This document shows positions 3,189-57,488 of a stretch of 64,000 nt of DNA, in pieces. Source of the DNA: Escherichia coli. GTDB lineage: Bacteria > Pseudomonadota > Gammaproteobacteria > Enterobacterales > Enterobacteriaceae. The stretch lies in the NCBI RefSeq assembly GCF_044324875.1, contig NZ_CP172185.1, one strand, 5' to 3'. How positions within the stretch are numbered: the stretch's first letter is position 1; each line of letters opens with the position of its first letter. Position numbers and translations under genes: made by a program. Below the pieces are notes generated by a model. It was not told the DNA's origin. It did not search any database and saw only the letters and a program-made list of their open reading frames with translations.

Positions 3189-3351
3189 TTCCGCTCTCAG
3201 GATAGCCTGAAGTTGACTATTTCGGGCTATCCAGAACCGCACAGCCATTTGAACAGGCTGATTTTCTCTGTCTGCATAACATTCGATATCCGCGCCATTA
3301 CCTGTCATCATGTGACTGCTCCCCGCCCTGTCGGGCAAGGCTTCCCACTTC

Positions 3352-4521
3352 TTAAGCCGCAACCGTCTGTGCTACGGATTTATGCTGGCCTCCATGGGCA
3401 GAAACGACGAGTCCCGCCGCTTGTAATTCCAGTATGCCCTTGCGTTTGATGTTGAGCGCCGCGTTGATATCGCGGTCATGTTCAACTCCACACTCTGGAC
3501 ACTGCCAGATGCGCTTATGTAATGGCATCTCCGACATTTTGTGACCGCAGCAGTGGCAGGTTTTCGAACTGGCGAACCATTGATCCAGTTTCACCAGATG
3601 CACACCTTTCTCTGTTGCTTTGTATTCCAGTTTTGTGATGAATCCAGACCATCCAGCATCGCCTATCGCACGAGCCAGATGGTGATTTTTCATCATATTT
3701 GCCGTTTTCAATGTCTCGACAATTACCGCTTGGTTTTCGTCAACAATTGCGCGAGATAACTTGTGCTGGAAATCGGCACGGGCACTGGCTACCCGTTCGT
3801 GAACGGCTGCAAGTTGTATTCTGGCTTTGCGCCTGTTTGCGTTCCCTTTTTTCTTACGGGACAGTGCTTTCTGCTTCCGGCGAAGGTTGCGACTTGCATT
3901 GATTAGGTGGCGGGGACTGGCAATTTTATTGCCGTCCGATTTGATGACAAAATGCGCCAGCCCCATATCCAGCCCTGTCACATTTGATATCAGTGCAGGC
4001 TTTGCCGGCGCTTCCATCCCGTCGTCACAAAGTAACGACGCGTAGTATTTCCCGGTTGCGCTGCGGCTCAACGTGATACTTTTCAGCATTCCCGTAATTT
4101 CACGATGTAAACGCGCTTCAATCGGCAAGATTTTCGGTATTTTTATCGCACCATCAAGGACTTTTATGCCAACACAATGATAGCTCGATTGTCTGCCGTG
4201 TTTACTTTTAAAGGTAGGTTTACCTGCTTTCAGTTTCGGATTGAAAAAGTTAGAAAAAGCCACGTCGAGGTTAATTACCGCCTGCTGCAACGCAATAGAA
4301 TCATATTCTTTAAGCCATCCATACCGGCGGGATTTCTTCGCCACTGCAAGCAGTGGTTTGAGGTCTTTACGCGGGTTTAAATTTACGCGGTGCCGCTGGT
4401 AAGAATGTTTCTTGATATGCAGAGCTTTGTTGTACGCAAAACGCACTGCACCGAACTGGGCGTTGATAAATTCAGCCTGTTCTGGTGTCGGGTAGATGCG
4501 TACTTTTGTTGCTCTTAACAT
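3352..4521 (-). CDS. tnpB: TnpB (IS605 OrfB family, RuvC-like RNA-guided nuclease)
   Basis: 389 aa; N-terminus MLRATKVRIYPTPEQAEFINAQFGAVRFAYNKAL typical of OrfB; putative RuvC triad residues in GLDMGLAHF, IVETLK and HDRDINAALNI; C-terminal zinc-finger cysteines CHCCGHK...CPECG. Confidence 0.85.
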   Translation of the reverse strand: MLRATKVRIYPTPEQAEFINAQFGAVRFAYNKALHIKKHSYQRHRVNLNPRKDLKPLLAVAKKSRRYGWLKEYDSIALQQAVINLDVAFSNFFNPKLKAGKPTFKSKHGRQSSYHCVGIKVLDGAIKIPKILPIEARLHREITGMLKSITLSRSATGKYYASLLCDDGMEAPAKPALISNVTGLDMGLAHFVIKSDGNKIASPRHLINASRNLRRKQKALSRKKKGNANRRKARIQLAAVHERVASARADFQHKLSRAIVDENQAVIVETLKTANMMKNHHLARAIGDAGWSGFITKLEYKATEKGVHLVKLDQWFASSKTCHCCGHKMSEMPLHKRIWQCPECGVEHDRDINAALNIKRKGILELQAAGLVVSAHGGQHKSVAQTVAA

Positions 4522-4577
4522 AATCAGCGCTCATTGATATAATGCTTTTATTTTAACACTTTAGGTAAATATATCAA

Positions 4578-5003
4578 TTGAGTAATCATGATGATTTACT
4601 GGCGGGATTTCTCCGCAAACGACACAGTGTCAGTAAGCTGGTTGTGCACCTTATTTTTACGACAAAGTATCGACGCAAACTATTCGACAGTCAGATGATC
4701 GCTCAGTTGCGTGAGGCTTTTGGCTCCGCTGCGGCAAAGCTTGAATGCGAAATTATTGAGATGGACGGGGAGCCAGACCATGTACACCTGCTGGTTGCCT
4801 ACCCGCCAAAACTGGCGGTCAGTGTGATGGTCAATAATTTAAAATCGGTATCATCACGTTTGCTACGCCAGCAGAACGCGCATTTACGTATGCAGAGTAA
4901 AACGGGGCTTTTGTGGTCGAGATCGTACTTTGTCTGTAGCACCGGAGAGGCAACGATTGAAACGCTCAGAGCCTACGTTCAGAGTCAGTCAACACCTGAT
5001 TGA
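4578..5003 (+). CDS. tnpA: IS200/IS605-family TnpA (HUH Y1 transposase); start codon uncertain
   Basis: 141 aa; motifs HLIFTTKYRRKLF, HUH HVHLL and catalytic-Tyr region SRSYFVCSTG; no in-frame ATG near the 5' end, so the ORF track used TTG at 4578. Confidence 0.75.
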   Translation: MSNHDDLLAGFLRKRHSVSKLVVHLIFTTKYRRKLFDSQMIAQLREAFGSAAAKLECEIIEMDGEPDHVHLLVAYPPKLAVSVMVNNLKSVSSRLLRQQNAHLRMQSKTGLLWSRSYFVCSTGEATIETLRAYVQSQSTPD

Positions 5004-5132
5004 TCTTTAAAGCCCTGCGGGCTTTTCGCCTTATATCCCCGCCCGCATTGGGCGAGGGTTTACGGCGTTTTTCGCTAAGCAATGACTACCCTGTTTCGCT
5101 TGCATCTCCGGTGAGTTTTGCCACCCTTATAA

Positions 5133-7879
<2,747 letters not shown>

Positions 7880-10706: not shown

Positions 10707-10792
10707 ACATTTAAGCTGATGACCACCGCGCTTTTTATTGACCATTTTGCACGCAAACTGGAAAACCTGGCGTCGTCATCTATTCTTAAAGG

Positions 10793-10895
10793 GCAAGGCA
10801 ACTAAGCCTGCATTAATGCCAACTTTTAGCGCACGGCTCTCTCCCAAGAGCCATTTCCCTGGACCGAATACAGGAATCGTGTTCGGTCTCTTTTT
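10793..10895 (+). ncRNA. sdsR: SdsR (RyeB) Hfq-dependent sRNA; antisense RyeA/SraC expected on the opposite strand across the same locus
   Basis: Recognised sequence GCAAGGCAACTAAGCCTGCATTAATGCCAACTTTTAGCGCACGGCTCTCTCCCAAGAGCCATTTCCCTGGACCGAATACAGGAATCGTGTTCGGTCTCTTTTT, ending in a terminator hairpin plus U-tract; located in the yebY-pphA intergenic region as in K-12. Confidence 0.7.
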
Positions 10896-11029
10896 ATCTG
10901 TTAAAAGCCAGAAGCATTCCCTTCGCTGACTTTATAGTCAACCATAACACACACTCTACTGTCTGAGTCCAGCGTTTTTTAACATTCTTGTTAAGATTAT
11001 GTGATCTTTAGCGCGGGAGGAAAATATTG

Positions 11030-22352: not shown

Positions 22353-23068
22353 TGCACAGAAAACCCCCAGCTAGGCTGGGGGTTCCGGAAAGCTTTCAGC
22401 TTTGAGCCAGTTATTAAAACCCCTTTTGATTTGTTAAAACACCTTGCGGTCTGGCAACTGCAAGTGTCAAACAAGTGTCAAACAAGAAATCAAAAGGGGG
22501 TCCCAATGGGGAACGAAAAGAGCTTAGCGCACACCCGATGGAACTGTAAATATCACATAGTATTTGCGCCAAAATACCGAAGACAGGTGTTCTACAGAGA
22601 GAAGCGTAGAGCAATAGGCTGTATTTTGAGAAAGCTGTGTGAGTGGAAAAGTGTACGGATTCTGGAAGCTGAATGCTGTGCAGATCATATCCATATGCTT
22701 GTGGAGATCCCGCCCAAAATGAGCGTATCAGGCTTTATGGGATATCTGAAAGGGAAAAGCAGTCTGATGCTTTACGAGCAGTTTGGTGATTTGAAATTCA
22801 AATACAGGAACAGGGAGTTCTGGTGCAGAGGGTATTACGTCGATACGGTGGGTAAGAACACGGCGAAGATACAGGATTACATAAAGCACCAGCTTGAAGA
22901 GGATAAAATGGGAGAGCAGTTATCGATTCCCTATCCGGGCAGCCCGTTTACGGGCCGTAAGTAACGAAGTTGGATGCAAATGTCAGATCGTGTGCGCCTG
23001 TTAGGGCGCGGCTGGTAAGAGAGCCTTATAGGCGCATTTGAAAAACCTCCGGCTATGCCGGAGGATAT
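22353..23068 (+). mobile_element. IS200-like insertion sequence (about 0.7 kb; boundaries approximate)
   Basis: Contains an IS200-type tnpA; 5' region has a perfect hairpin (cccccagc-tagg-gctggggg, 22364-22382) and a long stem pairing ccccttttgatttgtt with aacaagaaatcaaaaggggg that would sequester the RBS; inserted between the htpX terminator and the yebQ stop. Confidence 0.6.
22506..22964 (+). CDS. tnpA: IS200 TnpA (HUH Y1 transposase)
   Basis: 152 aa from MGNEKSLAHTRWNCKYHIVFAPKYRRQVFY; HUH motif DHIHMLVEIPPK; near-identical to Salmonella IS200 TnpA as I recall it. Confidence 0.88.
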   Translation: MGNEKSLAHTRWNCKYHIVFAPKYRRQVFYREKRRAIGCILRKLCEWKSVRILEAECCADHIHMLVEIPPKMSVSGFMGYLKGKSSLMLYEQFGDLKFKYRNREFWCRGYYVDTVGKNTAKIQDYIKHQLEEDKMGEQLSIPYPGSPFTGRK

Positions 23069-26460: not shown

Positions 26461-27129
26461 TCCTTCCTCAATCTTGAGTAACCCCGTCGTTGAAGGGTTA
26501 CTCAATTCATCCTGATTATACGCACTGTCATGGTGCAACTGCTTCAAATTAAAACTCTGGTCTGACTTCAAATAATTATCATATTATTTATTTGCGTAAC
26601 GGGATATCAGAAAAAGATATTTAGCCCATTAATTTATTAGGATGTTTACATCGGATTTGTGATTAAGCGTGGTATTATTTATTAGCGAAACGTTTCTCTC
26701 TTGATTTTTTTGCGCATTTATCAATTTTTCTTATTTTAAATTTACAATACCTTTGGCGATTGACTTCTCTTTGGGGTGATCTATAGCCGTTAACTGACTG
26801 TTTTATGAGAAAAAGTGATATAACTTTTTATTCATTGCATAGCAGAAAATGTGATATTGCACGCACTATGTAATAACTTCTCCCACTGGCCTGGAACAAC
26901 TGAACTTATTGAACTATGTTAGAAAATACGTCAGTTTAAGTATCTGCCTGAACTGGCAAGGTTAAGCACAATGATATATCGGCGCGTATTCCGTTGCATA
27001 AGTGTGCAAAAAAAGTGGAAGACGTATCGAGATTTGTGCGTCTGATCGAGACATGTTTAAAAATGGCTTGCCATAATTAACGTTGTATGTGATAACAGAT
27101 TTCGGGTTAAACGAGGTACAGTTCTGTTT

Positions 27130-27273
27130 ATGTGTGGCATTTTCAGTAAAGAAGTCCTGAGTAAACACGTTGACGTTGAATACCGCTTCTCTGCCGAGCC
27201 TTATATTGGTGCCTCATGCAGTAATGTGTCAGTTTTATCTATGTTATGCCTGCGGGCGAAGAAAACAATCTAA
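27130..27273 (+). CDS. yobF: Small protein YobF (47 aa; missed by the ORF track)
   Basis: ATG at 27130; translation [47 protein letters not shown]; ends 12 bp before cspC. Confidence 0.75.
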
Positions 27274-27285
27274 GGAATTTTTCAA

Positions 27286-27495
27286 ATGGCAAAGATTAAA
27301 GGTCAGGTTAAGTGGTTCAACGAGTCTAAAGGTTTTGGCTTCATTACTCCGGCTGATGGCAGCAAAGACGTGTTCGTACACTTCTCTGCTATCCAGGGTA
27401 ATGGCTTCAAAACTCTGGCTGAAGGTCAGAACGTTGAGTTCGAAATTCAGGACGGTCAGAAAGGTCCGGCAGCTGTTAACGTAACAGCTATCTGA
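27286..27495 (+). CDS. cspC: Cold-shock-domain protein CspC
   Basis: 69 aa [40 protein letters not shown]1/RNP2 motifs. Confidence 0.93.
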
Positions 27496-27660
27496 TCGAA
27501 TCCACTGATCTGAAGTGTGAATACGCTTCAATCTCGCTATAAAGCCTCGTCGAATGCGAGGCTTTTTACTTTGCTTTATCTTCGCTCCAGTCGTTCGGAT
27601 ATTTGCCCGCCGCGTGATTCGCGTTACACTTGCGGCCTTTAGTGTCCTGCCGGAGTTGTC

Positions 27661-44973: not shown

Positions 44974-46659
44974 TTGAAGAAGGTTTGGCTTAACCGTTAT
45001 CCCGCGGACGTTCCGACGGAGATCAACCCTGACCGTTATCAATCTCTGGTAGATATGTTTGAGCAGTCGGTCGCGCGCTACGCCGATCAGCCTGCGTTTG
45101 TGAATATGGGGGAGGTGATGACCTTCCGCAAGCTGGAAGAACGCAGTCGCGCGTTTGCCGCTTATTTGCAACAAGGGTTGGGGCTGAAGAAAGGCGATCG
45201 CGTTGCGTTGATGATGCCTAATTTATTGCAATATCCGGTGGCGCTGTTTGGCATTTTGCGTGCCGGGATGATTGTCGTAAACGTTAACCCGTTGTATACC
45301 CCGCGTGAACTTGAGCATCAGCTTAACGATAGCGGCGCATCGGCGATTGTTATCGTGTCTAACTTTGCCCACACTCTGGAAAAAGTGGTTGATAAAACCG
45401 CCGTTCAGCACGTAATTCTGACCCGTATGGGCGATCAGCTATCTACGGCAAAAGGCACGGTAGTCAATTTCGTTGTTAAATACATCAAGCGTCTGGTGCC
45501 GAAATACCATCTGCCAGATGCCATTTCATTTCGTAGCGCCCTGCACAACGGCTACCGGATGCAGTACGTCAAACCCGAACTGGTGCCGGAAGATTTAGCT
45601 TTCCTGCAATACACCGGCGGCACCACAGGTGTGGCGAAAGGCGCGATGCTGACTCACCGCAATATGCTGGCGAACCTGGAACAGGTTAACGCGACCTATG
45701 GTCCGCTGTTGCATCCGGGCAAAGAGCTGGTGGTGACGGCGCTGCCGCTGTATCACATTTTTGCACTGACCATTAACTGCCTGCTGTTTATCGAACTGGG
45801 TGGGCAGAACCTGCTTATCACTAACCCGCGCGATATTCCAGGGTTGGTAAAAGAGTTAGCGAAATATCCGTTTACCGCTATCACTGGCGTTAACACCTTG
45901 TTCAATGCGTTGCTGAACAATAAAGAGTTCCAGCAGCTGGATTTCTCCAGTCTGCATCTTTCCGCAGGCGGAGGGATGCCTGTTCAGCAAGTGGTGGCAG
46001 AACGTTGGGTGAAACTGACTGGACAGTATCTGCTGGAAGGTTATGGCCTGACCGAGTGTGCGCCGCTGGTCAGCGTTAACCCGTATGATATTGATTATCA
46101 TAGTGGTAGCATCGGTTTGCCGGTGCCGTCGACGGAAGCCAAACTGGTGGATGACGACGACAACGAAGTACCACCGGGTCAACCGGGTGAGCTTTGTGTC
46201 AAAGGACCGCAGGTGATGCTGGGTTACTGGCAGCGTCCGGATGCTACCGATGAGATCATCAAAAATGGCTGGTTACACACCGGCGACATCGCGGTGATGG
46301 ATGAAGAAGGATTCCTGCGCATTGTCGATCGTAAAAAAGACATGATTCTGGTTTCCGGTTTTAACGTCTATCCCAACGAGATTGAAGATGTCGTCATGCA
46401 GCATCCTGGAGTACAGGAAGTCGCGGCTGTTGGCGTACCTTCCGGCTCCAGTGGTGAAGCGGTGAAAATCTTCGTAGTGAAAAAAGATCCATCGCTTACC
46501 GAAGAGTCACTGGTGACTTTTTGCCGCCGTCAGCTCACGGGCTACAAAGTACCGAAGCTGGTGGAGTTTCGTGATGAGTTACCGAAATCTAACGTCGGAA
46601 AAATTTTGCGACGAGAATTACGTGACGAAGCGCGCGGCAAAGTGGACAATAAAGCCTGA
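44974..46659 (+). CDS. fadD: Long-chain fatty acyl-CoA synthetase
   Basis: 561 aa from a TTG start ([25 protein letters not shown]); AMP-binding motif [11 protein letters not shown]. Confidence 0.92.
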
Positions 46660-46678
46660 GCGTTAAGTCAGTCGTCAG

Positions 46679-46704
46679 ACGCCGGTTAATCCGGCGTTTT
46701 TTTT
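46679..46704 (+). terminator. Intrinsic terminator after fadD
   Basis: cgccgg-ttaat-ccggcg followed by tttttttt. Confidence 0.55.
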
Positions 46705-47862: not shown

Positions 47863-47898
47863 CCGAAGCCGGACTGGGCGTGCTCAGTCCGGCTTCGG
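47863..47898. terminator. Hairpin between convergent rnd and yeaX; likely bidirectional terminator
   Basis: ccgaagccggactg-ggcgtgct-cagtccggcttcgg. Confidence 0.5.
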
Positions 47899-47902
47899 CA
47901 AA

Positions 47903-48868
47903 CTACAAATCCAACACCAGGCGTTTACCTTTCGCACGCGAACAACAGATCAACATACTTTGCTGGCTGGCACGCTCTTCATCGCTAAAATACTGATCCC
48001 GATGGTCAGCTTCACCTTCCAGTATTGCCGTTTCGCAGGTTCCGCATACCCCTTCACGACATAAACATTCCACTTTCGCTGCTTTATTATTTTCAATAAC
48101 CTGCAAAATAGTCATCTCTTCCGGCACCACAAACTCTTTACCGGAACGGGCAAGCACCAGGGTAAATGCATCGCCGGTTTTGTCTTCGATAGCAAATTGC
48201 TCAAAGTGCAGCGTATCGGCGGCGATGTCCAGACGCGCAGCTTCACTTCTTACCGCTTCATTTAGCGCCTCGGGGCCACAGGTATAAACATGTGTGCCAG
48301 GTTCGATATCCGCCAATAATCGCGCTAATTCCAGTCGTGTTCCGGTTGATGAATGATGCAAATGGACTTTCTCAGCCTGCGGATGCTGGACTAGCTCATC
48401 ACGAAATGCGCAACTTTCTGGATTTCGCGTGCAGTAATGTAGCTGCCAGTCGACGTCGCTGTGTTGCAACTCTGCCATGTGCGACAGGAAAGGGGTGATA
48501 CCAATGCCGCCCGCGATAAACAGATGCTTTCTGGCCGAGGGAATTAGCGCAAACAGGTTATTAGGCGTTGAAATCGTTAACCGATCGCCCACTTTTACCT
48601 GCTGATGTAAAAAGCGTGAACCGCCGCGCGAGTTTTCTTCCAGCCGAACGGCAATCTGATAACTAGAGGTGTCATGCGGCGAGCTCAGGAGTGAATAAGC
48701 ATTGCTGTACTGGTTATCACCATCGCTCATCTGCACAATGATGTGACTTCCTCCGGTAAACGCAGGTAATGGTTTGCCATCGGTTGCCACCAGCGTGAAG
48801 CGTTTCACCTGTTCGGTAAGCGGTTCAACCTGGCTCACCTGTACTTCAAACATTTGATAGTCTGACAT
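47903..48868 (-). CDS. yeaX: Carnitine monooxygenase reductase subunit (ferredoxin-NAD reductase with 2Fe-2S)
   Basis: 321 aa; FMN/NAD-binding and C-terminal CxxxxCxxC...C ferredoxin motif. Confidence 0.85.
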   Translation of the reverse strand: MSDYQMFEVQVSQVEPLTEQVKRFTLVATDGKPLPAFTGGSHIIVQMSDGDNQYSNAYSLLSSPHDTSSYQIAVRLEENSRGGSRFLHQQVKVGDRLTISTPNNLFALIPSARKHLFIAGGIGITPFLSHMAELQHSDVDWQLHYCTRNPESCAFRDELVQHPQAEKVHLHHSSTGTRLELARLLADIEPGTHVYTCGPEALNEAVRSEAARLDIAADTLHFEQFAIEDKTGDAFTLVLARSGKEFVVPEEMTILQVIENNKAAKVECLCREGVCGTCETAILEGEADHRDQYFSDEERASQQSMLICCSRAKGKRLVLDL

Positions 48869-48923
48869 TGCTGTACTCCATCAAAAATCAGCCCAGCGGC
48901 GGAAAATACCGCCGCCGATGTCA

Positions 48924-50048
48924 TTAGTCCTTAAACACCTGCGCCAGCAGATTATGGAAATGGGCGATACCATGTTCGGAAATTCCGCTACCGCTACTGT
49001 CGGCCATGATGCGCCCCTGACCACGATAGCCACGCGATTTCAGCCCTTTCTGTACGCTTTCAACCAGACGTAAATCTTCCGGACGGAACACATCGCGATA
49101 CCATTCAATCAGCGATTTTTGCTCGTCGGTTAACTCTTCATTGGTGAAGTAAATATCGTAGTTTTGCAGGGTAGTTTCAGAATCCACCGGGAATTCATAA
49201 ATGACCGTCATCATCCCTTTGATTGGGGTGACGTTCAGCATCGTGCACGGCCACAGCCAGAAACCGTGGAATGCCGCATCCGTGCCCTCTTCGAATTTGA
49301 AAGACTGTTCTGACGGTTTGGCGAAACCGTATTGCAGCGTCCAGTTACCGTGCATGGTGTGCCAGTAACGATCAACCTGAACGGAGTCGGAGAAACCTGG
49401 ATGCGCCGGACCACAGTGATAGCACTCGAGATAGTTATCGACAATGTTCTTCCAGTTGGCAGGCGTGCGGGTGGTAAAGCGGGCCGCCAGTTTCAGATCG
49501 TGGACTTCCGGGCAGGCTTCCAGCACTTTCGCGCCCAGACCGGGTAACTGATCTTCTACGCTGGTGGCGTTAGGGTCCATGTTGATGAAGACGAATCCGG
49601 CATATTCTTCCAGACGCACCGGAACCAGTTGCGCTTTGTCGCTATCGAAATTGGCGACGTTTTCGCAGTTACGTGCATGGGCCAGGTTGCCATCGAGTTT
49701 GAATGCCCATGCGTGATACGGGCAGGTAATCACATTTTTCGCTTTCCCTTCGCCGCTCAACAACTGATGACCACGGTGCGGACACACGTTATAGAACGCG
49801 CGCAAAACCTTATCACGACCGCGTACCAGCACAATGCTTTCGCCAATGATCTCACGCGTCACATAATCATTGGCATTCGCCAGTTCGCTGCTGTGAGCGA
49901 CGCAAATCCAGCTTTTGGCGAAGACGTTCTCTTTTTCGTGTTCAAAGGCGTTCTGATCGGTATAAAAACGGGCAGGAATGGTCCACGCCTCTTGCGGGTT
50001 AGCGCAAAAATTTTCGGGTAGTACAAAGTCAGGGCTCAGATTGCTCAT
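48924..50048 (-). CDS. yeaW: Carnitine monooxygenase oxygenase subunit (Rieske non-heme iron)
   Basis: 374 aa from MSNLSPDFVLPENF; Rieske motif CPHRGH...CPYHAW. Confidence 0.88.
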   Translation of the reverse strand: MSNLSPDFVLPENFCANPQEAWTIPARFYTDQNAFEHEKENVFAKSWICVAHSSELANANDYVTREIIGESIVLVRGRDKVLRAFYNVCPHRGHQLLSGEGKAKNVITCPYHAWAFKLDGNLAHARNCENVANFDSDKAQLVPVRLEEYAGFVFINMDPNATSVEDQLPGLGAKVLEACPEVHDLKLAARFTTRTPANWKNIVDNYLECYHCGPAHPGFSDSVQVDRYWHTMHGNWTLQYGFAKPSEQSFKFEEGTDAAFHGFWLWPCTMLNVTPIKGMMTVIYEFPVDSETTLQNYDIYFTNEELTDEQKSLIEWYRDVFRPEDLRLVESVQKGLKSRGYRGQGRIMADSSGSGISEHGIAHFHNLLAQVFKD

Positions 50049-50079
50049 AGGGATACCTTTATCGTTAGGATGATGGCGC

Positions 50080-51690
50080 TCAGTTGTCGCCTTTGAATAC
50101 GGTTCCCGCAGGGAGCACTGGCGTTTTTTCCAGGACTTCAACCGGTGTCTGCGGGAGATAATGTTCAACTTGATGAGCCGGAATGTCGGCGTAATCCTGT
50201 TTCAGCCAGCGAATAAATCCGCCGACTTTCACCAGTAAAATGACGAGGAACGGAAGGGCTGTGAGTACGACGGTGGTTTTCATCGTTTCCAGCGACGCGC
50301 CAGTGAAAAGAATTGAAAGCGGGATCAGGGTAATTACCACGCACCAGAAAAGACGCAGCCCACGGTCAGGATCGTCACCTTCCTGGAGATTACGCGTACT
50401 GGTTGCCGCCATGGTGTAGGCCACCGCATCCATATGCGAGGCAAGGAAAATAATCATCACGCCCAGGTATGCGGCGAGGAACAATTTACCGGCTGGCAAC
50501 GACATCAGAACTTGCTGCACAGCTGTCTCGCCGCCCAGTGTTTCCAGCACCTGTGGGACGTTGATTACACCATTGATAAACTGGTGAATGGCATAGCTTT
50601 CCATTACGCCGAAGAAGAACCAGCAACCGACGGTGCTGCCGAGGATCAGTCCCCAGATAACTTCTTTAATCTTACGACCGCGGGAAACGCGGGTGACAAA
50701 CATTGCTACGCCAGGCGTGTATGAGATCCACCACAGCCAGTAGAAAACGGTCCAGTTGCGGGTAAATGAACCATCGCCAAGCGGATCGGTGAATAAGCTC
50801 ATTTGCAGGAAGTTTTGCGTGGTCAGGCCGATGGCATTGATGATGCTGTTGGTAATAAATTCGGTTGGACCGACAATCAGCACCAGTAATGGCAGCAGGA
50901 ACGCGCCCCAGCCAACCATTTTGCTCAGACGTTGCAAACCGTTGTTGATACCAATCCACGAGCTTAGGCAAAAAATGCCGCCGGAAAGCAGTATCACAAA
51001 TGCCTGCACGGTGAAGTTATCGGGTAAACCGGTCAGCGCGGAAAGCCCACGAGTAAAGGTTGCTGCGGTAACAACAAGGGAAATGGTCAGCGCACCGACA
51101 GTGGCGATCAGGAACATCAAATCGACCAGTTTTCCCCACGGGCCTTGCGGGCGAACGCCGGTAATCGCGGCAATAATGCCGGAAAGGCTCAGACCTTTGT
51201 TTTTCCGCACATGAAAGTGATAAGCCATGATTAATGAGGCCAGCGTATAAGTTGCCCAGGCGCTGATGCCCCAGTGGAAGAAGGAGTAAGGGACGCTAAA
51301 TTCGAGTGCCTGTTGTGAACGCGGTGCGATATTTAATCCAGGTGTTTGATAATAATAGGCCCATTCAGCAACCCCCCAATAAAGCGTAGAAGAACCTAAA
51401 CCGGCACAAATAAACATAAACAGCCAGGAGAGCGTGCTGTATTCCGGTTTTCCTTCGCCAAGACGAATATTGCCGTATTTACTGGTGGCTAAATAAATCA
51501 CCAGTCCCATTGCCAGCAAAACCAATACCTGTACGGCGGAACCTAACGTACGCGTAACAAAAGTGTATATAGCGTTGGCCGCGTCGGCCGATTGTTGTGG
51601 GAAAAGGCTTAATGCAGCTGCGATGAAAAGAATGGCCACCAGGCTGATGCTTATCAACGGCACATCTTTTTTCTTAACATTGCTCATCAT
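50080..51690 (-). CDS. yeaV: BCCT-family transporter (carnitine/betaine type); start codon uncertain
   Basis: 536 aa ORF, 12-TM BCCT-like; I recall the K-12 annotation as shorter, so the start may lie downstream. Confidence 0.8.
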
Positions 51691-51897
51691 GAGTCATCTC
51701 CTGGGCATAAAAGCCCGTCTCTGGCTTTTGCCAGTTGTAATTATTTGCAGGGTATGAGTTGTATGTTGTGTTTAACAAATTTATTATTTACATGTTACAT
51801 AAATTAAACAATTAAGAATACGGAAAGCCATAAAACACGAAACGGAAACAATAAAAGGTGAAATGACGCAGGTTATTTACTGCAAAGAACGAATAAA

Positions 51898-51925
51898 AAA
51901 ACCGCGTCAGTGACGCGGTTCAAAT
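51898..51925 (-). terminator. Intrinsic terminator after dmlA (minus strand)
   Basis: ccgcgtca-g-tgacgcgg palindrome with a U-tract on the minus strand. Confidence 0.5.
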
Positions 51926-53025: not shown

Positions 53026-53127
53026 TGGGTTCTCACTTCCTGACCATCAAAATTGACAATACCCTCATCCTATAATTGACTGAAAAGGAATTAATCCCCG
53101 TAACTGGTGAAACATAAAACACGAATC

Positions 53128-55045: not shown

Positions 55046-55083
55046 CGTAAGCGTACAGCGAGGGCCGTATTGACGGGGATGTG

Positions 55084-56622
55084 TTATTCAGCTGGCAGTG
55101 CTATGCGCCACGGAAGCAGTTCGCTGACCCGGTTGACCGGCCAGTCTGCTATGACGCCAAGCACATGGCGAAGGTAGCTTTCTGGATCCACGTCATTCAG
55201 TTTGCACGTCCCTATCAGGCTGTACAGTAGCGCTCCCCGCTCACCACCATGGCCAGAGCCGAAGAACAGGAAGTTTTTACGACCCAGACTTACCGCCCGC
55301 AGGGCATTTTCAGCGATGTTGTTGTCGATTTCCACCCAGCCATCGTTCGCATAGTACGTCAGTGCCGGCCACTGGTTAAGTGCGTACGCGAACGCCTTCG
55401 CCAACTCTGAGTGTCGCGACAGGGTCTTCATCTTTTCACGCAACCAGCTTTCCAGGGATTTCAACAGCGGTTTCGTTTTTCGCTGACGTTCAGCAAGCCG
55501 CTGCTCTGCCGGCATTCCCCTTATATCCGCCTCTATGGCGTACAACTGACCGATCTGCTCCAGGGCTTCTTCCGTCAGTGCTGACGGGATGCGGACGTGC
55601 ACATCGTGGATCTTTCGGCGGGCATGAGCCCAGCAGGCAGCTTCCGTTATCCCACCATTGCGATACAGCTCGTTGAACCCGGCGTACGCATCCGCTTGCA
55701 GCACACCGCTGAAGCAAGCAAGATGAGTCTGCGGATGGATGCCTTTTCTGTCCGGGCTGTAAGCGAACCACACTGCAGGTGCCAACGCTGACCCGGCATT
55801 GCGGTCATCACGAACATACGCCCACAACCGCCCGGTCTTCGTCTTCTTATTACCCGGCATCAGTACCTGGACCGGGGTATCATCGGCATGGAGTTTGCCG
55901 TCAGTCATGACATAGCCATGAAGCGCCTCTTCCAGCGGAGACAGCAGCCGGCAGCATGCATCCACCCAGCCCGACAGCAGTGAACGGCTCAGCTCCACAC
56001 CTTGCCGGCCGTATATTTCTGACTGGCGATACAGCGGGGTGTGCTCTGCATACTTCGAGGTCAGCACGCGGGCCAGCAGCCCCGGTCCGGCGATACCCCG
56101 CTCGATGGGCCGCGAAGGTGCAGGTGCCTGCACGATGGCATCGCACTGAGTACAGGCATGTTTTTCCCGTACCGTCCGGATAACCCGGAAGGCGCTACGC
56201 ATCAACTCCAGCTGTTCGGCGGTATCCTCGCCCAGATAGCTCAGTGAACCGCCGCAGTTCGGGCAGCACGGCGCCGCAGGCAACAGTCGCTTTTCGTCAC
56301 GGGGTAGTGATTCAGGGAACGGCTTACGGATGCGGGTCTGACGCAACGGACGCTGTACTGCCGGGTCATACACCCTACCAGTCAGCGTATCGCTCTCTTT
56401 CTGAAGCTGGTTCAGATCGGCTTCCATTTGTGCGATACGGCGGGAGACTTTTTCGGAACGACTGCCGAAGTTCATCCGGCGGAGTTTATCCAGCTGCGCC
56501 TGCAGATGGTCTATTTCGCGCTCCCGGTTGCTCAGCTTTTCCTGCAGGGCGTGGATCAGCGCTTCCTGTTCGGCCAGGCGCTGTTTCAGCAGGAAGATGT
56601 CGTCAGAAGAGATGTCGTTCAT
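55084..56622 (-). CDS. IS66-family transposase (TnpC/Orf3)
   Basis: 512 aa; leucine-zipper-like N-terminus, CPNCGG zinc motif and conserved DDE-type core typical of IS66 transposases. Confidence 0.88.
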
Positions 56623-56671
56623 AAGCCCGTATTTTACCGGGCTTATTCTGTGACAACCAGGATAAAGAGAT

Positions 56672-57019
56672 TTACAGCATGGTCAGGGAGGTCAGCAGCC
56701 GCTTAGGCTGTCGCCAGTCGATACCTTCCAGCAGCATCGCCAGCTGCGCCTGTGTAAGGAACACTTTGCCATCACGGGCTGACGGCCAGGCGAAGCGCCC
56801 ACGCTCCAGCCGTTTGGTCAGGAGGCACAGTCCGTCACCGGTGGACCACAGCAGTTTAACCTGACTGCCGCTGCGGCCCCGGAAAATGAAAACATGGCCG
56901 GACATGGGATCGTCTTTCAGCGCCGTCTGTACTTTCGCAGCCAGGCCGTTGAAGCCATTTCTCATATCGGTGATACCGGCAACCAGCCAAATTTTGGTCC
57001 CGGAAGGTAAAGGGATCAT
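56672..57019 (-). CDS. IS66 Orf2 (TnpB-named accessory protein; unrelated to IS605 TnpB)
   Basis: 115 aa beginning [31 protein letters not shown]; overlaps orf1 by 4 bp. Confidence 0.85.
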
Positions 57020-57417
57020 CGCTTCAGTTCCTGTATCAGCAGAGTCAGGAGCTTTTCGCTGACATTGCCATTGAAGCGGAGCGTCCCGTGCCGGAACGTT
57101 ACCTCACAGCTGATACTGAGGGTTTCCGGGTCCTCTGCGAGCGATTCTGGCTGTTCGGCAGCTGCATCGAGAGTCACAGGAAGTAGCTGGGGGCTCTCTG
57201 AAGAAGGTAATAGCAGCTTTCCCTCGCGCCATTGTTGTCGCCATTTGAACAACAGATTGGCGTTAATGCCATTTTCAAGAGCAAGTTTTGAGATGGATAT
57301 CCCGGGTTCACAGGAGGCAGCAACGAGCTGCTGTTTAAATTCGGGAGGATAATTAGGGCAGCCTTTTCGCCTGCCGGGAGTCACATTTTTCTGCATATCT
57401 GACACTTTGGTTCCCAC
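57016..57417 (-). CDS. IS66 Orf1 (TnpA-named accessory protein, helix-turn-helix)
   Basis: 133 aa; first ORF of the IS66 operon. Confidence 0.8.
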   Translation of the reverse strand: MGTKVSDMQKNVTPGRRKGCPNYPPEFKQQLVAASCEPGISISKLALENGINANLLFKWRQQWREGKLLLPSSESPQLLPVTLDAAAEQPESLAEDPETLSISCEVTFRHGTLRFNGNVSEKLLTLLIQELKR

Positions 57418-57488
57418 TACTTATTTGGTGGACACCACTTTGTCTAATTCGTCAGATTCTGACCAGACGGTTCAGGCTGTACGCTTAC

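Follow-up and report, generated by a model that had tools for sequence, protein, structure and literature searches.

The yeaV-yeaW-yeaX operon of Escherichia coli encodes a BCCT-family transporter together with a Rieske-type oxygenase and its reductase. The transporter gene raises a simple question: where does yeaV start, and why is its product annotated with 481 residues (1446 nt) in K-12 MG1655, whereas the longest open reading frame (ORF) of another E. coli strain encodes 536? The operon was analyzed in a 64,000-nt stretch (the window) of E. coli contig NZ_CP172185.1 (assembly GCF_044324875.1). The region very probably represents an intact yeaV-yeaW-yeaX operon in which the 536-residue yeaV is the real gene, the 481-residue K-12 form being the result of a 225-bp deletion. 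The operon and its function are already known and are textbook material in the field of gut microbes, carnitine and trimethylamine N-oxide (TMAO). What is added here is an explicit demonstration that the laboratory strains K-12 MG1655 and BL21(DE3) carry a damaged yeaV allele, an estimate of three allele states in E. coli, and a candidate DmlR operator common to dmlA and yeaV.

Origin of the two yeaV forms

The three genes lie on the minus strand of the window and extend, exactly as in the preliminary description, from the yeaX stop at 47903 to the yeaV start at 51690. In the direction of reading, they are yeaV (50080–51690, 536 residues, ATG at 51690, with a second ATG one codon on at 51687), yeaW (cntA; 48924–50048, 374 residues, ATG at 50048) and yeaX (cntB; 47903–48868, 321 residues), which follows yeaW after 55 nt. 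The order leuE-dmlR-dmlA-yeaV-yeaW-yeaX-rnd-fadD is that of K-12 (yeaV-yeaW-yeaX, b1801–b1803), with rnd/fadD on one flank and dmlA/dmlR on the other. The window YeaW is 100% and YeaX 99% identical to the K-12 proteins, and YeaV residues 43–536 are identical except for one substitution.

The dmlA-yeaV junction of the window was aligned with those of K-12, ECCHD184 and the closest complete genome, AF40 (alignment A1). K-12 and ECCHD184 lack one block of 225 bp, and BL21(DE3) has the same deletion layout. The corresponding segment of the window (51563–51786, minus strand), which is missing from MG1655, BL21(DE3) and an estimated 26% of E. coli, is 224 nt long compared with 225 nt in most intact strains, the 1-nt difference being located in the leader. 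It comprises 96 nt of leader, including the Shine-Dalgarno (SD) sequence, and 128 nt of coding sequence (codons 1–42 plus 2 nt), so that the deletion takes away the leader with the ribosome-binding site as well as the first transmembrane helix (TM1) and the loop preceding TM2. In the K-12 remnant, a TAA stands three codons 5' of the junction, and the first usable start is a TTG at the position of Leu56 in the long frame, inside TM2. As the first start left after the deletion, this TTG explains the 481-residue annotation of K-12. The preliminary description was thus right that the transporter frame is longer than in K-12, but the ambiguity of start that it saw there dissolves, since K-12 lacks 225 bp including the real start and the two forms do not differ by choice of start codon. 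The NCBI annotation pipeline (PGAP) labels the allele of ECCHD184 and BL21(DE3) a pseudogene ("incomplete; missing N-terminus"), and current RefSeq annotation therefore already treats the deletion allele as a pseudogene in other strains.

The segment, with a colinear leader and N-terminus, is present in E. albertii, E. whittamii, Escherichia sp. E1V33, several Citrobacter, Klebsiella and one further enterobacterium; these outgroups identify the K-12 state as a derived deletion rather than the ancestral form. The converse, a 225-bp insertion in the lineage of this strain with K-12 ancestral, would explain the bare length difference and nothing else, and can be dismissed, since all of these outgroups and more distant genera have the segment and the inserted DNA would have needed to provide exactly TM1 of the BCCT fold. 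A search for direct repeats at the deletion ends found just 1 nt of junction microhomology, the nearby TTTGTTA copies being out of register. No description of the yeaV deletion was found in the literature library that was searched.

The start of yeaV

Several comparisons place the start of yeaV at the upstream methionine. The YeaV equivalog model NF007412 of NCBIfam (536 positions) is matched from 1 to 536 with 1031 bits (cutoff 647), whereas K-12 YeaV covers model positions 56–536 only. The Pfam profile of the BCCT family (PF02028; TC 2.A.15; 406 bits, cutoff 27; E = 1.9e-121) aligns residues 14–499 with profile positions 3–485 of 485, and the alignments with solved BCCT structures begin at residues 16 (DddT) and 26 (CaiT). 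A protein cluster with 10,327 member sequences, which carries the name "BCCT family transporter YeaV", matches the window protein with 100% identity, and RefSeq uses the same product name for the 536-residue form. Database homologues have 532–550 residues with a query coverage of 95–100%, and those from at least 10 genera start at the upstream methionine, not at the downstream one that the preliminary description had left in play.

Alignment A2, of 15 sequences, shows conservation of the N-terminus M-x-S-N-x-K-K-D-V-P-L-I...F-P in Escherichia, Klebsiella, [Enterobacter] lignolyticus, Citrobacter/Salmonella, Shimwellia, Serratia, Yersinia, Xenorhabdus, Crenobacter, Pseudomonas, Aeromonas, Cupriavidus, Achromobacter and Helicobacter; fourteen YeaV homologues of 532–548 residues have it in common. 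Codons 1–55 are under purifying selection, with ratios of nonsynonymous to synonymous substitution rates (dN/dS) of 0.10 against E. albertii, 0.07 against Citrobacter and 0.13 against Klebsiella, at dS values of 0.7–1.5. Inspection of ribosome-binding sites at the candidate starts found an AGGAG (51698–51702, minus strand) 7 nt before ATG 51690, conserved as (A/G)GGAG in Escherichia, Citrobacter, Klebsiella and other Enterobacterales, and nothing comparable before Met61; the TTG of codon 56 is preceded by a mere AGG at 2–3 nt.

A downstream start, at TTG56 or Met61 with the upstream 55 codons untranslated and the long frame open by accident, finds support in the K-12 annotation and in the TIGR00842 "bcct" match, which begins at residue 55. 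It is nevertheless very improbable: the equivalog and Pfam matches include the disputed residues, the N-terminus is conserved in distant genera at a dN/dS of about 0.1 with dS saturating, the strong SD belongs to the upstream ATG, and the K-12 annotation could not have used that ATG, which does not exist there. With the 536-residue frame retained, the residual uncertainty amounts to one codon. E. coli begins ATG-ATG, E. albertii ATA-ATG, and Citrobacter and Klebsiella ATG-TTG; either ATG 51690 or ATG 51687 could serve.

Fold and probable substrate of YeaV

An AlphaFold2 model of YeaV built on alignment A2 (pTM 0.77) places helices at residues 7–29 and 31–69. Comparison by Foldseek with CaiT, TmaT, BetT and BetP gave TM-scores of 0.80–0.90 over about 485–500 columns (CaiT 4M8J, an R262E variant: 0.83 normalized on the query, 0.90 on the target; BetP, BetT and TmaT: 0.81–0.83). 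The model thus predicts a full 12-helix BCCT fold with a LeuT-type core, as in CaiT and BetP. The tryptophan motif of TM8, the quaternary-ammonium box, is present and invariant in A2: residues 313–324 align with CaiT WTVFYWAWWVIY, and W320, W321 and Y324 with CaiT W323, W324 and Y327.

CaiT, the antiporter for L-carnitine and gamma-butyrobetaine encoded in the E. coli cai operon (PDB 2WSX, 3HFX), has the BCCT fold and the tryptophan motif in common with YeaV and shows that carnitine is a substrate within the family, but the two proteins share 28% identity. In CaiT, M331 and R262 replace the Na2 and Na1 sites and make the protein an ion-independent exchanger. Both positions are valine in YeaV (V328 and V259), and the score with the CaiT equivalog NF002887 (346 bits) is below the cutoff of 541; YeaV is therefore expected to carry out ion-coupled uptake rather than exchange. 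The genetic contexts differ as well, CaiT serving anaerobic carnitine respiration and YeaV being encoded beside an O2-dependent oxygenase. YeaV does not resemble the osmoregulated BetP/BetT type, having 227 bits against the BetT subfamily model NF007399 (cutoff 695) and no extended C-terminal osmosensor: about 38 residues follow TM12, modeled with low confidence and poorly conserved. The best sequence match among solved structures is the dimethylsulfoniopropionate (DMSP) importer DddT (PDB 21fh and related; 339 bits, residues 16–498), from which YeaV differs in genomic context and substrate, the likeness being at the level of the BCCT subfamily.

The closest functional guide is Aci01347 of Acinetobacter, which is needed for growth on carnitine and imports carnitine and choline in a protonophore-sensitive, osmolarity-independent manner (PMC6562126). 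YeaV shares 54–56% identity and strict synteny with Acinetobacter relatives of Aci01347, among them those at the A. calcoaceticus and A. nosocomialis loci. This orthology and synteny are the best evidence at hand: as the orthologue of the Acinetobacter carnitine importer, YeaV would import L-carnitine, and possibly choline or gamma-butyrobetaine, in an ion-coupled manner like Aci01347 and not by CaiT-type exchange.

A different primary role, in export of trimethylamine (TMA), in exchange of carnitine for a product, or in uptake of gamma-butyrobetaine, choline or unrelated metabolites, appears unlikely. The BCCT family does include a TMA transporter (8ZW8) besides CaiT, both with TM-scores of 0.82–0.83 to the model, the best-matching solved structure transports DMSP, YeaW/YeaX also accept gamma-butyrobetaine (PMC5433236), and untargeted metabolomics of yeaV in K-12 indicated several non-quaternary compounds (PMC10971958). 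Since the strains of that study were K-12, it concerned the truncated 481-residue ORF. The missing exchange hallmarks of CaiT and the strict synteny with the Acinetobacter relatives favor carnitine import.

YeaW, YeaX and carnitine catabolism

The products of the two downstream genes are those that the preliminary description named, a Rieske carnitine oxygenase with its reductase; the product names in RefSeq are consistent with this identity of the operon. YeaW contains the Pfam domains Rieske (E = 1e-23) and Ring_hydroxyl_A and matches the carnitine oxygenase CntA (PDB 6Y8J, also 6Y9D) with 657 bits (E = 9e-197) over residues 4–371. YeaX contains FAD_binding_6, NAD_binding_1 and Fer2 (E = 2e-14) and matches phthalate dioxygenase reductase (PDB 2PIA) with 196 bits. 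The significance of the Pfam matches excludes all three frames of the operon as chance ORFs. By sequence, YeaW and YeaX have the oxygenase and dedicated reductase that characterize carnitine monooxygenase CntA/CntB (EC 1.14.13.239). A longest frame of 414 residues for yeaW, beginning at TTG 50168, was rejected, as it overlaps the 3' end of yeaV; the CntA alignment, which begins at residue 4 of the 374-residue form, and the RefSeq gene length of 1125 nt identify ATG 50048 as the start.

Purified K-12 YeaW/YeaX form a two-component carnitine monooxygenase that produces trimethylamine and malic semialdehyde (PMC9508527). From the literature, the reaction in this strain would convert L-carnitine, O2 and NAD(P)H to these two products. 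In Acinetobacter, malic semialdehyde dehydrogenase then yields D-malate, which a decarboxylating D-malate dehydrogenase converts to pyruvate (PMC11353897). The neighboring E. coli DmlA is the orthologue of the latter enzyme (72% identity) and would likewise take D-malate to pyruvate.

Putative regulatory region upstream of yeaV

An intrinsic terminator follows dmlA (51899–51921, minus strand; 10-bp stem and T7) and is conserved in Escherichia and Citrobacter. Given this strong, conserved terminator, yeaVWX is probably transcribed from a promoter of its own. The spacer from the terminator to yeaV contains a stretch of about 110 nt that hardly varies between Escherichia and Klebsiella. It includes a non-coding block with two tandem boxes, CACCTTTTATTGTTTCCGT and CGTGTTTTATGGCTTTCCG (51821–51860, minus strand), which are candidates for a LysR/DmlR operator. 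The 13-mer TTCGTGTTTTATG occurs twice in the 64 kb (51829–51841 and 53113–53125; 0.08 occurrences expected), and the second copy (minus strand) is part of the dmlR leader and precedes the dmlA ATG by about 98 nt. LysR-type regulators bind interrupted dyads of the GTG...CAC kind. The box here, (C/T)GTGTTTTAT-N4-5-TTCAC (YGTGTTTTAT-N4-5-TTCAC), is such a dyad (GTG-N11-CAC type). Both yeaV and dmlA are preceded by it, the latter at about -98, in Escherichia, Citrobacter, Klebsiella, Serratia, Shimwellia, Yersinia and Xenorhabdus, and in Serratia it is a perfect CTGTG-N11-CACAG. The arrangement suggests that DmlR may control both the dmlA and the yeaV unit, a candidate operator linking D-malate and carnitine genes; yeaVWX would then be a separate transcription unit, probably controlled by the LysR regulator DmlR through the conserved box. 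A conserved LysR-type box upstream of both genes may be new, and it offers a testable handle on induction of the operon; literature searches for binding sites of DmlR gave mostly irrelevant results. The longest dmlR frame begins at a GTG seven codons 5' of the K-12/PGAP ATG (314 compared with 307 residues). The additional 21 nt (53107–53127) coincide with the second box, and their conservation may thus be regulatory rather than coding.

A -10-like hexamer is found about 40 nt downstream of each box. For yeaV, the putative promoter (51783–51811, minus strand), read from the sequence, consists of a -35 element TTGTTT (51806–51811), a 17-nt spacer and a -10 element AATAAT (51783–51788), both hexamers lying within blocks conserved across genera. 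The left boundary of the K-12 deletion lies within the -10 element, so the deletion may weaken the promoter; the box survives in K-12. Downstream of the promoter, the leader folds into two hairpins (51703–51734, minus strand; z = -2.7), CTGGCAAAAGCCAG at 51721–51734 and GGGCTTTTATGCCC at 51703–51716, the latter abutting the SD. The GGGC...GCCC arms are conserved in Citrobacter and Klebsiella, with a variable loop. A CA-rich leader motif, (T)AACAAC...ACAGGC (51735–51760), is recognizable in E. coli and from Citrobacter to Xenorhabdus (L026, L028, L029, L037). An Rfam search of the yeaV leader found no known RNA family, the sole match being a weak anti-hemB hit (E = 0.15) on the dmlA terminator.

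K-12 yeaV has been listed as a target of CRP by genomic SELEX (systematic evolution of ligands by exponential enrichment; PMC3105977). A search for CRP sites (TGTGA-N6-TCACA, up to 3 mismatches) gave 201 matches where 225 were expected, with nothing convincing upstream of yeaV. A microarray study of O157:H7 Sakai found yeaV and yeaW about 2-fold up on entry into stationary phase (PMC2241611), and O157:H7 genomes carry the intact allele.

Allele states across E. coli

The distribution of the alleles was surveyed by BLAST against 5426 complete E. coli genomes. The flanks of the deletion site were found in 4369 genomes and at least 80% of the operon in 4367, the 224-nt block in 2930, and neither flanks nor segment in about 1057. 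By these counts, an estimated 54% of genomes are intact, about 26% have the K-12-type deletion and about 19% lack the dmlR-to-yeaX cluster. Among the rows listed, intact genomes include O157:H7, O104:H4 and KO11FL (a derivative of E. coli W), and operon-less ones include Nissle-type and O2:K2:H1 strains.

An operon-less genome (NZ_CP076689.1, locus L088) retains, at positions 4655–5067 next to rnd, a 168-nt fragment of dmlR and a 156-nt fragment of dmlA, annotated as a LysR regulator and a tartrate dehydrogenase, and the final 65 nt or so of the yeaX-rnd region are still present in genomes of this class. These remnants identify the operon-less state as a deletion of about 5.4 kb from dmlR to yeaX. 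Strain HS-02 (NZ_CP172818.1, H37) matches just the first 124 nt of the 224-nt block, with no gene annotated there, and possibly represents another, different lesion at the yeaV 5' end.

Consequences of the deletion

It is conceivable that the K-12-type deletion is functionally neutral, in that TM1 and TM2 lie outside the 10-helix core, the 481-residue product works and yeaW and yeaX are expressed. Loss of both N-terminal helices would preserve the topology of TM3–12. At the DNA level, the upstream box and the -35 element are kept and the hybrid -10 (AATTTT) retains the A2 and T6 positions. Overexpression of the K-12 ORF altered extracellular carnitine among other compounds (PMC10971958). The K-12 gene shows no further decay beyond the single substitution noted above, which is equally expected from a recent deletion. 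Set against these points, the SD is gone and the sole remaining start is a TTG with poor spacing; TM2 is left with 14 hydrophobic residues, probably too few to cross the membrane; PGAP classes the allele as a pseudogene; and BL21 extracts had no detectable monooxygenase activity (PMC11353897). On balance, neutrality appears rather unlikely.

A broader picture is tentative, and as a whole it must be regarded as rather doubtful: natural E. coli strains with the intact allele would run a DmlR-controlled pathway from carnitine to TMA and D-malate and on to pyruvate, with another aldehyde dehydrogenase, such as GabD, replacing the lost malic semialdehyde dehydrogenase (msadh), and the 225-bp deletion would cripple the pathway in K-12 and BL21(DE3), and probably in B, the parent strain of BL21. 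Several points weigh against the overall reading of the operon given here. E. coli K12, B and BL21 did not grow on carnitine and the BL21 extracts were inactive (PMC11353897), so the operon may be poorly expressed whichever allele is present. The sole transport assays in question are those of the orthologue Aci01347, from which a carnitine role of the 536-residue E. coli YeaV would follow by analogy. Besides carnitine, knockout and overexpression of yeaV in K-12 shifted pantothenate, kynurenate and several amino acids (PMC10971958); the truncated YeaV may keep some activity, or the effects may be indirect. On the regulatory side, the yeaV promoter and the DmlR box are proposed from conservation, every Escherichia has a degenerate right half-site in its yeaV box, and scanning the dmlA-yeaV spacer for consensus sigma-70 promoters gave no hit, the -35 element matching at 3 of 6 positions. 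Finally, the allele frequencies were obtained by subtraction of BLAST counts and not by genotyping of each genome. A published table that lists K12 and BL21 as carnitine-positive (PMC6200775) was not counted as evidence of native activity, the source cited for K12 having used the strain solely as a DNA standard for quantitative PCR.

If the picture holds, the polymorphism of intact, 5'-deleted and absent alleles, and not the mere presence of cntA, would explain the poor correlation of cntA abundance with TMA/TMAO, and the published negative results for carnitine in "E. coli" would be an artefact of laboratory strains. It may be a new point that the only growth tests of E. coli on carnitine used laboratory strains, of which the two checked, MG1655 and BL21(DE3), are truncated. 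Neither the growth tests of K12, B and BL21 (PMC11353897) nor the transporter study of yeaV based on the K-12 Keio and ASKA collections (PMC10971958) mentions a truncated allele. Work on YeaV, or the scoring of TMA potential from cntA/yeaW, should use an intact strain (O157:H7, O104:H4 or E. coli W) or genotype the site.

The conserved cluster and its probable erosion in Escherichia

Synteny was examined in 80 loci recovered from a species-level genome collection. The order LysR (divergent) | Iso_dh - BCCT - Rieske - (Aldedh) - reductase is kept in most of them, in about 70 genomes spanning Acinetobacter, Pseudomonas, Neisseriaceae and Enterobacterales; a few loci, such as those of Achromobacter (L043, L052, L053), have no recognizable dmlR/dmlA matches. 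The cluster of A. baumannii (carR, mdh, bcct/aci01347, hyd, cntA, msadh, cntB), whose transporter and enzymes are experimentally characterized (PMC6562126, PMC11353897, PMC9508527), agrees with that of E. coli in the order and orientation of five genes, for the regulator, D-malate dehydrogenase, BCCT transporter, oxygenase and reductase, with identities of 45–74%. The two clusters differ in that Escherichia lacks hyd and msadh, an absence from the E. coli cluster that is already published (PMC11353897). They also differ in the gap between mdh/dmlA and the transporter gene, which holds a terminator and a regulatory region of 250–600 nt in Enterobacterales and measures 21–59 nt in Acinetobacter.

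The Aldedh gene between oxygenase and reductase, for the aldehyde (malic semialdehyde) dehydrogenase, is present in Klebsiella, many Citrobacter, Serratia, Pseudomonas and Acinetobacter. None of the four Escherichia sampled (E. coli, E. albertii, E. whittamii and Escherichia sp. E1V33) has it, and separate losses affect Shimwellia, Yersinia and some Citrobacter, Serratia and Xenorhabdus; the loci in this comparison include L004, L006, L009, L012 and L016. The window accordingly does not have the complete Acinetobacter-type cluster, a spacer of merely 55 nt (48869–48923) separating yeaW and yeaX. This spacer contains a GC-rich hairpin and T-run (48893–48918, minus strand; from a scan for terminator-like elements) just 5' of the yeaX SD. 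A hairpin occurs at the same position upstream of yeaX in Citrobacter, Klebsiella and Serratia, after the Aldedh gene, with stems that differ by compensating changes. The E. coli spacer resembles the post-Aldedh spacer of Citrobacter in hairpin position, T-run and yeaX ribosome-binding site, and one Citrobacter lineage without the Aldedh gene retains its final 12 nt or so as a scar. The likeness of the spacers and this scar mark the Aldedh absences as deletions.

Taken with the allele survey, these observations suggest that the cluster is eroding in Escherichia: msadh is gone throughout the genus, about a quarter of E. coli genomes have lost the yeaV 5' end, and about a fifth have lost the entire cluster. 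In E. whittamii (L035, positions 6001–7519), the yeaV match is in two parts, residues 1–190 and 214–536, and compared with E. coli the locus is short by about 90 nt, which suggests an internal deletion of about 90 nt and a further sign of erosion of the gene in the genus.

Other features of the window

A 14-bp hairpin (47863–47898; CCGAAGCCGGACTG / CAGTCCGGCTTCGG), identified by inspection between the convergent rnd and yeaX genes, is a probable bidirectional terminator that ends the operon; the region is kept in genomes without the operon.

Three insertions distinguish the window from AF40. An IS66-family element of 2442 nt (55047–57488; ORFs of 133, 115 and 512 residues) lies within yeaR, a gene that in BL21(DE3) carries a different insertion sequence, the IS4-like IS421. 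An insertion of 1763 nt (3312–5074) between ptrB and yebE encodes a TnpB-like protein of 389 residues and, divergently, a Y1 (IS200-type) transposase of 141 residues, which identify it as an IS200/IS605-family element. An IS200-like insertion of 712 nt (22356–23067) lies between htpX and yebQ, its 5' end matching Rfam STnc490 (22362–22496). Further Rfam matches above the gathering threshold, all expected in this region of E. coli, are SraC/RyeA and SdsR/RyeB, which overlap on opposite strands (10755–10899), a cspA-type thermoregulator (27110–27570), and sroD between fadD and rnd (46618–46703).

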